Source: Escherichia coli
Lineage (GTDB): Bacteria; Pseudomonadota; Gammaproteobacteria; Enterobacterales; Enterobacteriaceae
Assembly: GCF_036507355.1 (NCBI RefSeq)
Contig: NZ_AP027877.1
DNA length: 64,000 bases
Direction: 5' to 3' (one strand)
In this document: one piece after another, positions 1-57,250 of the stretch
Numbering within the stretch: the first letter of the stretch is position 1
Layout of the letters: every line of letters begins with the position of its first letter
Notes under the pieces: generated by a model
What the model was told of the DNA's origin: nothing
The model's database searches: none
What the model saw: the letters and a program-made list of their open reading frames with translations, nothing else
Position numbers and translations under genes: made by a program

Positions 1-279
1 AACCGGTTGGCCATTGGCATCTGTTTGATACGTTACCAGACGCTTGCCCAGCCAGTTTTCTGCAAAAGCACGGATGTCTTCTTTACTGTTTACAACTTTC
101 ACACCGCCCGCTTTACCGCGGCCACCAGCGTGAACCTGACATTTCACTACCCACGGACCGGCACCGATTTTTGAAGCGGCTTCTTCTGCTTCGCGCGGAG
201 TAGTACAGGCATAACCCACCGGTGCTGGTAAGCCATAGCGGGCAAAAAGTTGTTTTGCCTGATATTCATGTAAGTTCAT
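1..279 (-). CDS. sucC: Succinyl-CoA synthetase beta subunit, 5' part only (gene continues beyond window start)
   Basis: Reverse complement of 241-279 reads ATGAACTTACATGAATATCAGGCAAAACAACTTTTTGCC = [13 protein letters not shown], the SucC N-terminus; no stop inside the window; follows sucB on the same strand. Confidence 0.85.
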
Positions 280-372
280 GTGTTCTGTCCATCCTTCAGT
301 AATCGTTATCTTTTAAACCGTAGACCGACACCCTATCCACGTCGGTCTACAGTGCAGGTGAAACTTAAACTA

Positions 373-1590
373 CTACACGTCCAGCAGCAGACGCGTCGGA
401 TCTTCCAGCAACTCTTTGATCGTTACCAGGAAGCCCACGGATTCGCGACCATCGATCAGACGGTGATCGTAGGACAGCGCCAGGTACATCATCGGCAGGA
501 TCTCAACCTGACCATTCACCGCCATCGGACGATCTTTGATAGCGTGCATACCCAGAATTGCGCTCTGCGGCGGGTTGATGATCGGCGTAGACATCAGGGA
601 ACCGAACACACCACCGTTGGTGATGGTGAAGTTACCACCGGTCAGATCTTCAACCGTCAGCTTGCCATCACGGCCTTTGACTGCCAGCTCTTTGATTTTC
701 TTCTCGATGTCTGCCATGCCGAGGGTATCGACATCACGCAGAACCGGCGTCACCAGGCCGCGCGGCGTAGAAACCGCCATGCTGACGTCGAAATAGTTGT
801 GGTAAACCACGTCATCGCCGTCGATAGAAGCATTCACTTCCGGGTAACGTTTCAGGGCTTCAACCACCGCTTTCACGTAGAAGGACATAAAGCCCAGACG
901 GATGCCGTGGCGTTTTTCAAACGCTTCACCGTACTGCTTACGCAGATCCATAATCGGCTTCATGTTGACTTCGTTGAACGTGGTCAGCATGGCGGTGGAG
1001 TTTTTCGCTTCCAGCAGACGCTCTGCCACACGCTTACGCAGGCGAGTCATCGGGACACGTTTTTCACTACGTGCAGCCAGAGCCGGTTGCGCCGCCGAAG
1101 CAGCCGCTGCCGGAGCAGACTCTTTCGCCGGAGCTTTCGCCAGATGTTTTTCCACATCTTCACGGGTCAGACGACCACCCACACCGGTGCCTTTAATGGC
1201 GCTGGCGTCGAGGTTGTGTTCAGCCAGCAGGCGACGGATCGCCGGGCTTAACGCATCGTTGTTTTGCTCTTCCAGAGACGCCTGCTGGCGTTGCGCCGGA
1301 GTGGACGCTTTCTCTTCAGATTTGGCGCTGGTTTCTTTACCGGCGCTGTTGCCTTCACGCAGGCGACCAAGGATCTGACGAGACGTTACCGTTGTACCTT
1401 CATCTTCCAGAACCGCATCCAGAATGCCGTCTGCTGATGCCGGTACTTCCAGTACCACTTTGTCAGTTTCGATTTCTACCAGCACTTCATCACGTACGAC
1501 TGCGTCGCCGGGTTTTTTATGCCAGGTTGCGACGGTGGCATCGGCTACGGATTCAGGCAGGTCAGGGACCAGAATATCTACGCTACTCAT
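373..1590 (-). CDS. sucB: Dihydrolipoyllysine-residue succinyltransferase (E2 of 2-oxoglutarate dehydrogenase)
   Basis: 405-aa [32 protein letters not shown]..., lipoyl domain plus Ala/Pro linker plus catalytic domain; length matches SucB. Confidence 0.97.
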
Positions 1591-1604
1591 TGTGTATCCT
1601 TTAT

Positions 1605-4406
1605 TTATTCGACGTTCAGCGCGTCATTAACCAGATCTTGTTGCTGTTTCTGGTGAACGGACATATACCCTACCGCCGGAGAGGCGGAGGCCGGGCGGCC
1701 TGCATAACGCAGAGAAGCCCCAAACGGAATCACTTCACGGAAATGATGCTGGCTGCAGTACCATGCGCCCTGGTTGAGCGGCTCTTCCTGGCACCAGACA
1801 AAATCCTTGACGTGAGCAAACTGCTGCAACACTTCCTGCATCGCTTTATGCGGGAACGGGTAGAGTTGCTCGATACGCACAATGGCGACATCGTGTTGAT
1901 TGTTCTTACGACGCTGTTCCAGCAGGTCGTAATAAACCTTACCAGAACACATCACTACGCGCTTCACGCCCTTCGGATCAAGCTCGTCGATTTCACCGAT
2001 GGCTGGCAGGAAGGTGCCGTTCGCCAGTTCTTCGAGGCTGGAAACCGCCAGCGGATGACGCAGCAGGGATTTCGGCGACATCACGACCAGCGGACGACGC
2101 ATCCCGCGCAGCGCCTGACGACGCAGCATGTGGTAAACCTGTGCCGGGGTAGACGGTACGCAAACCTGCATGTTTTGCTCAGCACAAAGTTGCAGATAAC
2201 GTTCCAGACGCGCGGAGGAGTGCTCCGGCCCCTGCCCTTCGTAACCGTGCGGCAGCAACATCACCAGCCCACACATCCGGCCCCATTTCTGTTCGCCAGA
2301 GGAGATGAACTGGTCGATAACCACCTGCGCGCCGTTGGCGAAGTCACCGAACTGCGCTTCCCAGATAGTCAGAGTGCGTGGTTCTGCGGTGGCATAACCG
2401 TATTCAAACGCCAGCACTGCTTCTTCAGAAAGTACGGAGTCCCAGACACGGAACGCGCCCTGGCCGTTATGAATATGTTGCAGCGGCGTGTAAGTAGAAC
2501 CGTTAGACTGATTGTGGATCACCGCGTGGCGGTGGAAGAAGGTACCGCGACCGGAGTCTTCACCCGACAGGCGAACCGGAATGCCTTCATCAACCAGCGT
2601 GGCGTAAGCGAGGTTTTCCGCGCCGCCCCAGTCGAACAGTTTCTCACCGGCAGCCATCGCCTGGCGATCGCCATAAATCTTGGCAACGCGAGACTGCATT
2701 TCAACTGCTTCCGGCACCGTGCTGATGCGTTTCGCCAGCTCCTGCAGGCGCTTCATCTCAACTTTGTTCGGGTACTCTTCGTCCCATTCGTGGTTGAGGT
2801 ACGGCGACCAGGTGAAAGAGTGCATGTTCATCGGACGCCACTCTGCCACTACGCAATCGCCAGCATCCAGCGCATCGCGGTACAGGTTAACCATCTCGGT
2901 GGCATCTTCCAGCGTCGCCACTTTTTCCTGCTCCAGCTTGTCAGCGTAGATTTTGCGCGGTGTCGGATGTTTTTTGATTTTCTGATACATCAGCGGCTGG
3001 GTTGCGCTCGGCTCGTCGGCTTCGTTGTGGCCGTGACGGCGGTAGCACACCAGGTCGATGAAGACATCACGTTTAAAGGTGTTACGGAAATCGAGCGCCA
3101 GACGGGTCACAAAGGCAACGGCTTCCGGATCATCCGCGTTAACGTGGAAAATCGGTGCCTGAACCATCTTACCGATATCAGTACAGTACGGTGTAGAACG
3201 GGCATCCAGCGGGTTAGAGGTGGTGAAGCCAACTTGATTGTTGATAACGATACGTACCGTACCGCCAACTTCATAACCACGCGCTTTCGACATGTTCAGG
3301 GTTTCCTGAACCACGCCCTGCCCGGTCACTGCGGCGTCACCGTGGATGGTGATTGGCAGCACTTTGTTGCTGCTCGGCTCATCAAGTCTGTCCAGACGGG
3401 CACGAACAGAGCCGATAACAACCGGGCTTACAATCTCAAGGTGAGACGGGTTAAACGCCAGCGCCAGGTGTACCAGGCCGCCATCGGTCTGGAAGTCAGA
3501 CGAGAAGCCCATGTGGTATTTCACGTCACCCGTGCCGAGGTGTTCTTTATGTTTACCGGCGAACTCGTCGAACAAGTCTTGCGGTTTTTTACCCAGCACG
3601 TTCACCAGCACGTTCAGACGACCACGGTGCGCCATCCCGAGAACCACTTCCCGGGTGCCGCTGTTGCCAGCGTGGCGGATCATCTCTTTAAGCATCGGGA
3701 TTAACGCGTCACCGCCTTCCAGCGAGAAGCGTTTTGCACCAGGGAATTTTGCACCGAGGTAACGTTCAAGGCCTTCAGCGGCGGTCAGTTCGCTTAAGAA
3801 GCGTTTTTTCTCTTCGCTATTGAAAGTCGCGCGACCAGACTCGATACGCTGTTGGATCCAGCGTTTTTCTTCGGTGCTGGTGATGTGCATATACTCGGCA
3901 CCAATCGGGCCGCAGTAGGTTTGCTTGAGGGCTTCCAGCAGCTCGCCGAGTTTCATGGTTTCTTTGCCGCTGGCAAATGAACCGACGTTGAAGGTCTCCT
4001 GGAAGTCTGCTTCGGTCAGATCGTGGAAAGACGGATCCAGATCGGCCACTTTATCTTGCTGCCACAGTCCCAGCGGATCGAGATTCGCATGCTGGTGACC
4101 ACGGAAGCGGTATGCGTTAATGAGCTGCAGGACTTTAACCTGCTTCACATTGGTGTCAGGGTCGGAGATCGTTGAAGAGTAACGTGAAGCGTCTTTCGCC
4201 AGGCGGCGGAAATATTCACGAGTTTGAGAGTGGAATTGATCCGGTTTGACTCCCGTACCAGGTAACTGCTGGAACGTCGAACGCCAGTTAGCGTCAACCG
4301 AGTCAGGATCGGTTAAGAAGTCTTCATAGAGCTGTTCTATCCAGCTCTGGTTTGCGCCAGAGAGGTAAGAAGAGTCCAACCAGGCTTTCAAAGCGCTGTT
4401 CTGCAT
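1605..4406 (-). CDS. sucA: 2-oxoglutarate dehydrogenase E1 component
   Basis: 933-aa [33 protein letters not shown]...; full-length SucA. Confidence 0.97.
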
Positions 4407-4585: not shown

Positions 4586-4704
4586 GCCTGATGCGCTGCG
4601 CTTATCAGGCCTACGGGTAATGACTTGTAGGCCGGATAAGACGTTCACGCCGCATCCGGCACTGGTTGCCTGATGCGACGCTTGCGCGTCTTATCAGGCC
4701 TACG
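4586..4704. repeat. REP/BIME cluster (three REP units) in the sdhB-sucA intergenic region
   Basis: Imperfect palindromic units of the type gcctgatgcg...cttatcaggcctac and gtaggccggataag...gccgcatccggca, repeated in alternating orientation. Confidence 0.6.
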
Positions 4705-22050: not shown

Positions 22051-22165
22051 GCCTGATGCGACGCTTAACGCGTCTTATCAGGTCTACGTATTTCCTGCAA
22101 TTTATTGAATTTGCACAAATTTGTAGGCTGGATAAGGCGTTTACGCCGCATCCGGCATCTGGGCT
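22051..22165. repeat. REP/BIME units between convergent dtpD and phr
   Basis: gcctgatgcgacgcttaacgcgtcttatcaggtctac and gtaggctggataaggcgtttacgccgcatccggca palindromic units. Confidence 0.6.
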
Positions 22166-37448: not shown

Positions 37449-37740
37449 GGGTTGAAATGCCGGATGCGGCGTAAACGCCTTATCCAGCCTACTCATCGTC
37501 CCGTAGGCATGATAAGACGCGTCAGCGTCGCATCAGGCATGGCTCTGTGAATAACGTCGGCAAAAACTGGAAAAAGACCCCGCCCTCGCCATTTTATTAC
37601 CGAAACCGGTATTGGGTATCGGTTTATGCTTTAGGGGCTGACTTGCCGGATGCGGCGTGAACGCCTTATCCAGCCTACTCATCGTCCCGTAGGCATGATA
37701 AGACGCGTCAGCGTCGCATCAGGCATTGGCACTCATGGCT
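37449..37740. repeat. REP/BIME cluster containing an imperfect tandem duplication of the kdpE 3' end
   Basis: Segment 37371-37542 recurs at 37561-37728 at roughly 90% identity, including REP units gccggatgcggcgtaaacgccttatccagcctac and gtaggcatgataagacgcgtcagcgtcgcatcaggca. Confidence 0.7.
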
Positions 37741-38292: not shown

Positions 38293-38333
<41 letters not shown>

Positions 38334-45684: not shown

Positions 45685-45850
45685 TGCCGGATGCGGCGTG
45701 AACGCCTTATCCGGCCTACAAAAGCACGCAAACTCAATATATTGCAGAGATCATGTAGGCCTGATAAGCGTAGCGCATCAGGCAATTTAGCGTTTGAAAC
45801 TGTTTGTCTGTTCCTTGCCGGATGTGGCGTAAATGCCTCACCCGGCCTGG
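45685..45850. repeat. REP/BIME cluster between glnS and the chiP upstream region
   Basis: ttgccggatgcggcgtgaacgccttatccggcctac, gtaggcctgataagcgtagcgcatcaggca and ttgccggatgtggcgtaaatgcctcacccggcct units. Confidence 0.6.
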
Positions 45851-47682: not shown

Positions 47683-47739
47683 TGCCAGTCCCGCGTCATT
47701 GTTGGATGCGCGTCTTATCCAACCAGGACTGAGCTTTTG

Positions 47740-47778
47740 TAGGCCTGATAAGACGCGTCAAGCGTCGCATCAGGCATA
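47740..47778. repeat. REP unit downstream of nagE
   Basis: gtaggcctgataagacgcgtcaagcgtcgcatcaggca. Confidence 0.55.
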
Positions 47779-57189: not shown

Positions 57190-57250
57190 CAATGTCGGAT
57201 GCGACGCTGCCGCGTCTTATCCGACCTACGGTTGGCACGCATCCGGCAAT
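57190..57250. repeat. REP-like palindromic units between the tRNA operon and ubiF
   Basis: atgtcggatgcgacgctgccgcgtcttatccgacctac and ggcacgcatccggca. Confidence 0.5.

Follow-up and report, generated by a model that had tools for sequence, protein, structure and literature searches.

In the window, a stretch of 64,000 nt of Escherichia coli DNA, the suc operon stands as its reverse complement: sucB (odhB in the RefSeq annotation) occupies positions 373-1590 of the minus strand, and sucC begins at 279 on the same strand and runs beyond the window edge. The 93-nt spacer between these two genes, which lies inside the sdhCDAB-sucABCD operon, contains at positions 320-350 two 10-bp arms in perfect inverted repeat, 11 nt apart (+ strand gtagaccgac-accctatccac-gtcggtctac). 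A perfect 10-bp stem-loop had been pointed out at this position in a sequence-only reading of the window, and our analysis confirmed its sequence exactly; what had been quoted is the non-transcribed strand, which leaves the arms unaffected and changes the loop sequence alone. Since the suc genes are on the minus strand, the transcript carries the hairpin as GUAGACCGAC-GUGGAUAGGGU-GUCGGUCUAC (Table 1).

The arms are complementary at 10 of 10 positions, with no mismatch in the stem, and in RNA the predicted helix grows beyond the 10-bp stem, outward by ACU/GGU and inward by two G-U pairs. Folded alone, the 31-mer gives -15.7 kcal/mol; the extended helix (353-317) reaches -20.9 kcal/mol (z = -5.27), and none of 200 dinucleotide shuffles folds equally well. 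The hairpin is the dominant structure of the sucB-sucC spacer, whose best hairpin outscores all 100 of 100 spacer shuffles. Its arm pattern occurs once in the 64-kb window, against 0.00 expected from shuffles. Short-range inverted repeats of at least 10 nt number 22 in the same 64 kb, the hairpin among them, so repeats of this sort are not rare overall.

Table 1. Features of the sucB-sucC spacer in the window, and components of the long alleles found at the same site in other genomes (transcript sense).
Feature	Window position	Strand	Sequence or remark
31-nt perfect palindrome	320..350	-	GTAG at 5' end, CTAC at 3' end
Hairpin 5' arm	350-341	-	GUAGACCGAC
Hairpin loop	340-330	-	GUGGAUAGGGU
Loop variants among short alleles	330..340	-	AUGGAUAGGGU, GUGGAUAGGGG
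Hairpin 3' arm	329-320	-	GUCGGUCUAC
Extended 15-bp RNA helix (predicted)	353-339 pairs with 331-317	-	ACUGUAGACCGACGU / GUGUCGGUCUACGGU; 7-nt loop; includes G-U pairs
sucB stop UAG (375-373) and second in-frame UAG (372-370)	370..375	-	
CACCUG motif	355..360	-	1 nt 5' of the extended helix; kept in eight sampled Enterobacteriaceae lineages
Predicted stable RNA 3' end	312..312	-	Homologous to K-12 762981; predicted for the short allele
sucC ribosome-binding region	277..296	-	SD AAGGAUGG at 296-289; start codon AUG at 279-277
y-type REP of the long array			GTAGACCGGATAAGGCATTATCGCCTTCTCCGGC, then AATTGAA
z2-type REP of the long array			GCCTGATGCGACGCTGACGCGTCTTATCAGGCCTAC
91-bp repeat unit			GGGACCACCAAT, y REP, AAGCGAT, z2 REP
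Degenerate array tail			GG-GTGACCGAC-25 nt-TCGGTCTAC

The hairpin had also been described as stable, as standing after the sucB stop and ahead of the sucC ribosome-binding site, and as having no U tract behind it, and the distances, the tail and a scan for terminators all agree with this description. From the sucB stop to the stem there are 19 nt if the 15-bp helix is counted and 22 nt if the perfect stem is counted; from the stem to the sucC Shine-Dalgarno (SD) sequence the corresponding distances are 20 and 23 nt, and folding predicts that the hairpin leaves this SD unoccluded. The stem is followed by GGUUUAAAAG, with 3 U and no U-tract, and a terminator and promoter scan called the hairpin on neither strand. 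An Rfam scan of window positions 1-2000 at a permissive E value returned nothing at the hairpin and two chance-level lncRNA matches (E ~3) elsewhere. The sucC ribosome-binding region CUGAAGGAUGGACAGAACAC (window 280-300, minus strand) is almost invariant among Enterobacteriaceae genera, and Spot 42 is linked to this region in PMC6393394. At the other end of the spacer, the engineered RF1-free strain B95.deltaA has TAA CGA CC in place of the sucB double UAG; sucB is mentioned 18 times in a paper on UAG reassignment (PMC4434889).

Short and long alleles of the sucB-sucC spacer

We compared a 301-nt query around the hairpin with 5,426 complete E. coli genomes, and found a match in 5,425 of them, with a span that differed by strain and was 301, 392, 482 or 573 bp. 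Examples of each length class, when read, revealed a REP array at sucB-sucC in K-12 and many other strains. These long alleles contain 2, 4 or 6 REPs and a degenerate tail, for an intergenic region (IGR) of 184-365 nt, and consist in transcript order of GTAGACCG, one y REP and one z2 REP, a 91-bp y+z2 unit present 0, 1 or 2 times, and the tail (Table 1). The y and z2 nomenclature is reportedly that of Gilson and Bachellier.

Both allele classes start with GTAGACCG and finish with CGGUCUAC, and their flanks are identical; the array terminates in CGGTCTAC, as does the window hairpin, and the array tail contains the arm cores of the hairpin, GACCGAC and TCGGTC. The hairpin is the short allele of the E. 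coli sucB-sucC REP/BIME site, a context that the earlier description lacked and in which ~35% of genomes carry 2-6 REPs. The left junction of the long allele is found in 1,875 of 5,426 genomes (~35%) and 2,562 E. coli genomes contain an exact match to the 28-nt hairpin core; a looser search for the core recovered 3,395 genomes and 3,398 places (median 1, maximum 2 per genome). Judged by these matches, the short hairpin is the majority allele (~63-65%) and K-12 has the minority form. By strain name only, the short allele is known from O157:H7 and O6:K2:H1 and the long one from K-12, B and H10407.

Variation among the short alleles is restricted to two SNPs in the loop and one in the flank, with an invariant stem, and forms intermediate between the two classes were looked for in two ways. 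The product of a deletion through GACCG microhomology, with no REPs and the 25-nt tail as its loop, matched no genome, and a REP array combined with the 11-nt loop was found in 0 genomes at a coverage of at least 80%. The number of tandem copies in BIME-2 elements varies from strain to strain and REP sites turn over fast (PMC3333891), and length variation by 91-bp units at sucB-sucC is typical BIME-2 polymorphism. In E. coli PSJ-07 (L090:320-345) the first REP is a hybrid, with the 5' part of REP-a and the 3' part of REP-c; its sequence indicates unequal recombination within the BIME, and it adds one more length variant.

The two allele classes also have a predicted structure in common. Whole spacers of K-12 (274 nt), LZHX12 (184 nt) and E. 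albertii (261 nt) were folded, and in all three the MFE and the centroid both contain a 15-bp helix (ACUGUAGACCGGAUA / UAUUCGGUCUACGGU) that starts at spacer position 20 and encloses the entire REP array. The outer 11 bp of this closing helix (ACUGUAGACCG / CGGUCUACGGU) are identical to those at the base of the window hairpin, and the alleles can be modelled as one predicted stem that encloses a 7-nt loop in one class and 150-330 nt of REPs in the other. For the sucC SD, numerically identical pairing probabilities are predicted in the short, K-12 and E. albertii alleles; given a common closing helix, the size of the insert would be structurally neutral for the sucC ribosome-binding site. Conservation of the pairing in related species, on which the earlier reading had been made to depend, is confined to part of the structure: the outer 11 bp are conserved in all E. 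coli alleles and in E. albertii, the inner pairing and the loop are unconserved between alleles, and other genera differ. Because the helix is invariant in E. coli and E. albertii, no covariation is available, and since DNA palindromes and REPs pair by construction, conserved pairing is no proof of selection on the RNA.

The long alleles bear directly on the proposal that the palindrome is a protein site at the DNA level, either an operator or a site of the gyrase/IHF type. Its 10-bp inverted repeats are separated by 11 bp, and REPs and BIMEs bind proteins at the DNA level according to PMC2817692. However, ~35% of genomes, and E. albertii as well, have 150-330 bp between the half-sites, a distance incompatible with a dimeric operator, and the hairpin is without the REP sequence that such proteins recognise. 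We regard a role of this kind as scarcely conceivable.

The same folds are relevant to the earlier suggestion that the hairpin modulates coupling between the two cistrons. A translational device could work by stalling ribosomes after sucB, or by bringing the CACCUG motif upstream of the stem against the sucC SD, so that sucC is coupled or masked. CACCUG, which resembles the 16S rRNA 3' end (AUCACCUCC), is present, among the matches listed, in E. coli, E. albertii, Citrobacter, two Enterobacter spp., Pseudocitrobacter, Superficieibacter and a soil MAG; it is missing in the sampled Mangrovibacter and Klebsiella sp. BIGb0407, whose sucC SD region differs too, and two Yersinia species have UACCUG in its place. 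The motif pairs with AGGAUG in the long-allele centroids. Deletion of the hairpin in silico raises the pairing of the sucC SD from 0.07-0.34 to 0.24-0.82, and a scramble of the 3' arm brings it to 0.55-0.72 at 6 of 7 SD nucleotides. Against these shifts, CACCUG pairs with the SD at a predicted probability of only ~0.15 in E. coli, and between genera this value varies from 0 to 0.77. Moreover, translational down-regulation by REPs has been described for stems less than 16 nt after the stop codon (Liang, Rudd and Deutscher 2015, as cited in PMC12306157), and the stem here, 19 or 22 nt past the sucB stop, is beyond this rule. In silico, the case for coupling is weak, and we consider a translational device very improbable; the specific idea of anti-SD pairing or coupling through CACCUG:AGGAUG was not adopted, as this pairing is weak and inconsistent between genera.

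Hairpins after sucB in relatives and the age of the two alleles

A genome scan with the SucB C-terminus yielded at least 80 loci from a broad gammaproteobacterial sample (Salmonella and E. fergusonii are absent from it), 57 of them with a recognisable sucB-sucC spacer. Among the matches listed, the best spacer hairpin exceeds at least 95% of its shuffles in 40 of these 57 IGRs. In the Enterobacteriaceae that can be aligned, a palindrome is found just 3' of the conserved CACCUG and its sequence differs by genus: it reads CCC-GUAGGUCUG...CAGGCCUAC-GGG in Citrobacter sp. FP75, GCCGGAUG...CAUCCGGC in Superficieibacter, and UCAGACCGGAUG-ACUCUG-CAUCCUGUCUGA in Enterobacter sp. BIGb0383 (-15.0 kcal/mol, z -5.2), where the GTAG is lost and the pairing retained. 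Across these alignments the specific pairing appears to be conserved within Escherichia only, and there in the outer helix only, while some hairpin at the site is widespread. This wide occurrence of a hairpin after sucB supports, but does not prove, a role as an RNA stem.

A scan of metagenomes for the same arms with other loops gave 40 matches, of which 17 are E. coli, and no new loop in a suc context. The other matches are unrelated longer palindromes in environmental contigs. In four soil and wetland contigs (L106:53-88, L119:1381-1412, L123:168-204 and L126:829-865) they are longer perfect palindromes built on these 10-nt arms (GTAGACCGACGCGGTCTTAAGACCGCGTCGGTCTAC and close variants of it, for example), and may represent a GTAG-tagged family of another organism, unrelated to suc.

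E. albertii has the long form, in an IGR of 261 nt with the same ends as the E. coli alleles. It shares 94.5% (sucB) and 94.3% (sucC) identity with the window in the flanks and 93.5% identity with K-12 in the IGR, figures that look like ordinary vertical divergence with no recent import; a further SucB protein cluster among the relatives (P0005) again has an E. albertii-type IGR of 261 nt. Since the long form of E. albertii is at ordinary divergence, we regard the short hairpin as probably derived, by collapse of the array onto its closing stem, and think it likely that the array is older than the split between E. coli and E. albertii and that the 31-nt palindrome arose from it within E. coli. 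The short allele most likely retained the two outermost ends of the array and acquired a new 11-nt loop, giving the perfect GTAG...CTAC palindrome. The coding sequence that flanks the site differs by less than 1% between the window and K-12, so the linked divergence expected of an ancient balanced polymorphism is absent. Two observations fit this order of events less well. The short-allele interior AC-GUGGAUAGGGU-GU is not obtainable from the long allele by a single deletion, and no donor copy was found elsewhere; in addition, Citrobacter and Enterobacter have simple hairpins at the site, so a simple hairpin may be the older state. As a separate observation, every contig examined that encodes the 402-aa SucB of cluster P0009 (L131-L133) stops at most 2 nt from the sucB stop codon, a pattern suggesting that short-read assemblies of that organism break where its sucB-sucC spacer is repetitive.

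A derived origin raises the question of whether the palindrome is a neutral relic, left over from the deletion of a REP array, that folds in RNA and has no selected role. The element is single-copy and probably derived, ~35% of genomes have a wholly different interior, SNPs are tolerated in the loop, and palindromic pairing is maintained by construction; the rapid turnover of REP sites and the strain-variable copy number of BIME-2 (PMC3333891; PSJ-07 at this site) also agree with such an origin. Against a relic stand the significant hairpins after sucB in 40 of the 57 gammaproteobacterial IGRs and the position of the stable K-12 3' end, which maps at the common stem (see below). A further point against it is the conservation of the 78 nt formed by the IGR flanks and the outer helix, in which E. 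coli and E. albertii have 0 differences, whereas the adjoining coding sequence differs by 5.5%; the chance of 78 unchanged nucleotides would be 0.945^78, or ~0.01, although the ribosome-binding and Spot 42 region accounts for part of this constraint. Taken with the evidence on both sides, a neutral relic seems to us unlikely, while deserving appreciable weight. What looked like a unique perfect hairpin is a trace of REP/BIME turnover at a classic site, which matters mainly for annotation.

RNA 3' ends and a probable protective role

RNA 3' ends at the site were taken from the MG1655 Term-seq data of Adams et al. 2021 (supplementary file 1, PMC7815308). The rows of this table give 50 nt upstream, the 3' end and 10 nt downstream, a layout that we checked against the row for the sgrS terminator and against the sucC start at 763014. 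One K-12 3' end, at 762981(+) of NC_000913.3 in the LB OD 0.4 tab, has ~1,569 reads and the context ...AUAUUCGGUCUACGGUUUAA[A] (PMC7815308); it lies 8 nt past the CUAC of CGGUCUAC and 5 nt past the extended helix. A second, at 762937(+) in another growth tab, apparently LB OD 2.0 by its position in the file, lies 9 nt past the last z2 REP (PMC7815308). The data also contain a 3' end internal to sucB, at 762343 (+), in two of three growth tabs (PMC7815308). The 3' arm and the 40 nt downstream of it are identical in K-12 and the window, so the 762981 end is homologous to window position 312, and we infer that the short allele yields the same 3' end as K-12, with a consequence for expression.

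Stable stems without a U-tract mark steady-state 3' ends genome-wide and block PNPase and RNase II, and REPs are a subclass of these U-less protective stems (Dar and Sorek 2018, PMC6061677). In the same vein, 3' ends at BIMEs within operons stabilise the upstream genes, according to PMC9023263; one such end on a BIME in an operon, T3PE-226, was not counted as evidence, as its locus is unnamed in the text of that paper. The earlier proposal of an RNA stability or processing element thus names the best-supported class, with the K-12 Term-seq end at the shared 3' arm as its main evidence and homology as the bridge to the short allele. We favour, with some reserve, the interpretation that the short allele of the REP/BIME site acts as a U-less protective stem-loop for RNA ending after sucAB.

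According to this proposal, the stem would fold in the sdhCDAB-sucABCD mRNA just past the region covered by a ribosome that terminates at the sucB stop. As it has no U-tract, RNA polymerase would mostly continue into sucCD, and a downstream endonucleolytic cut or an occasional termination event would free a 3' end, which PNPase and RNase II would trim in the 3'-to-5' direction until they stall a few nt 3' of the stem. The sucAB-ending RNA would be stabilised and the levels of the sucAB and sucCD messages may then diverge, as with REP stabilisers. On the other side, the K-12 3' ends are modest (~1,500 reads) and each is seen in a single growth condition, and it may be the REPs, not the closing helix, that give rise to them.

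The position of the K-12 3' end could also be read as that of a partial terminator or attenuator, in which the stem and a short UUU halt some RNA polymerases and lower sucCD relative to sucAB. A strong stem is followed here by GGUUUAAAA, the distance of 8 nt from stem to 3' end is also typical of intrinsic termination, and in several distant relatives the hairpin behind sucB is followed by a U-rich tail (e.g. L033, L052 and L062). These points are countered by the 3 U only after the stem and by a scan that is negative on both strands. Expression of sucCD is, moreover, said to rely on read-through from Psdh and Psuc, a result attributed to Cunningham and Guest in 1998. Attenuation associated with BIMEs has been reported (Espeli 2001, as cited in PMC6061677), but in reporter assays 3' ends without a terminator motif are far weaker than intrinsic terminators, according to PMC9023263, and no Rho-region coordinate of Adams et al. 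2021 (PMC7815308) falls within the sucB-sucC IGR. A partial terminator is, in our view, improbable.

A highly speculative extension, to which we give still less credence than to attenuation, is that selection keeps the two haplotype classes as two SucAB:SucCD set-points, with the short form as a selected minimal stabiliser that arose when a BIME collapsed onto its stem. If true, E. coli lineages would differ in heritable set-points for the ratio of 2-oxoglutarate dehydrogenase to succinyl-CoA synthetase; both alleles would keep one closing helix and with it the same geometry at the sucC ribosome-binding site, and could yet differ in sucAB protection or attenuation. The natural dimorphism offers a ready allele swap for comparing the contribution of a REP array to mRNA protection with that of a plain stem-loop, and it is relevant whenever K-12 transcript maps or sucB-sucC constructs are carried over to EHEC or ExPEC. 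The REPs of K-12 at sucB-sucC, the copy-number polymorphism of BIME-2 and the existence of REP stabilisers are already established. What may not have been described before is this particular short allele, its being the majority form, the lack of intermediates, and the closing helix that both alleles are predicted to share.

Comparison with REPs, terminators and other GTAG-tagged palindromes

E. coli REPs are imperfect palindromes of 30-40 nt with a GTAG 5' of the foot of the stem, belong to the y, z1 and z2 types and occur in hundreds of copies (PMC3333891). The window hairpin resembles them in its length of 31 nt and in having GTAG at its 5' end and CTAC at its 3' end, and, like REPs and BIMEs in general, it is extragenic, transcribed and near the 3' end of the upstream ORF. 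Unlike a REP, its palindrome is perfect and the GTAG lies within the stem. Global alignment of the hairpin with the y and z2 REPs of the K-12 allele gave scores of 2-5, against shuffle means of 2.6-3.1 (sd ~1.4), while the controls scored 14 (y vs y) and 26 (z2 vs z2). The locus is nearly always found in one place (median 1, maximum 2), both in the 5,425 genomes of the allele survey and in the 3,395 of the core search. Membership among canonical REPs, for which y and z2 were compared, was rejected on copy number, stem mismatch and sequence, and these three differences make the hairpin a remnant of a REP array rather than a REP. The idea of a dispersed repeat was likewise rejected, with one copy in the window and a single place in nearly all E. 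coli genomes.

The TnpA_REP protein needs the GTAG and a stem mismatch, and REP mutants made into perfect palindromes are neither bound nor cleaved (PMC3333891); by these published requirements, the hairpin should not be a substrate. BIME-2 elements have y and z2 REPs that alternate in inverse orientation and vary in tandem number, as do the long alleles, and the window allele has no REP; it does occupy exactly the site of the K-12 BIME-2 and keeps the terminal 8 nt of the array on each side. Canonical REP motifs have 18 and 14 matches in the same 64-kb window, and the strain has a normal REP population although its sucB-sucC site lost its REPs. One cluster with y and z2 motifs, at window 4598-4703, lies between sdhB and sucA in the same operon, and further REP/BIME clusters lie at 22071-22156, 37459-37705, 38294-38327, 45686-45829, 47709-47757 and 57213-57229.

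An intrinsic terminator shares with the hairpin a GC-containing stem of similar energy and, in K-12, a 3' end 8 nt past the stem; the hairpin differs in its tail GGUUUAAAAG, which has no U-tract, in the negative scan, and in the need for read-through into the sucCD genes downstream. The nearest functional parallel is with REP stabilisers and other U-less protective stem-loops, which are also stable intercistronic stem-loops without a U-tract; the hairpin departs from the former in that its stem is not a canonical REP, and a stabilising effect at this locus is predicted by analogy. REP stabilisers were reportedly described by Newbury in 1987 for malE-malF and by Khemici and Carpousis in 2004.

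Finally, short palindromes that terminate in GTAG are known from other bacteria (Di Nocera et al. 2013, PMC3733652), and the hairpin resembles them in this respect; those palindromes form multi-copy families, whereas the sucB-sucC hairpin is a unique, locus-specific remnant. Among them, HH dimers of REPs, which have their GTAG termini on the outside, can form one large stem-loop (PMC3733652), and the long sucB-sucC allele is predicted to fold as these dimers do, into one large stem-loop.
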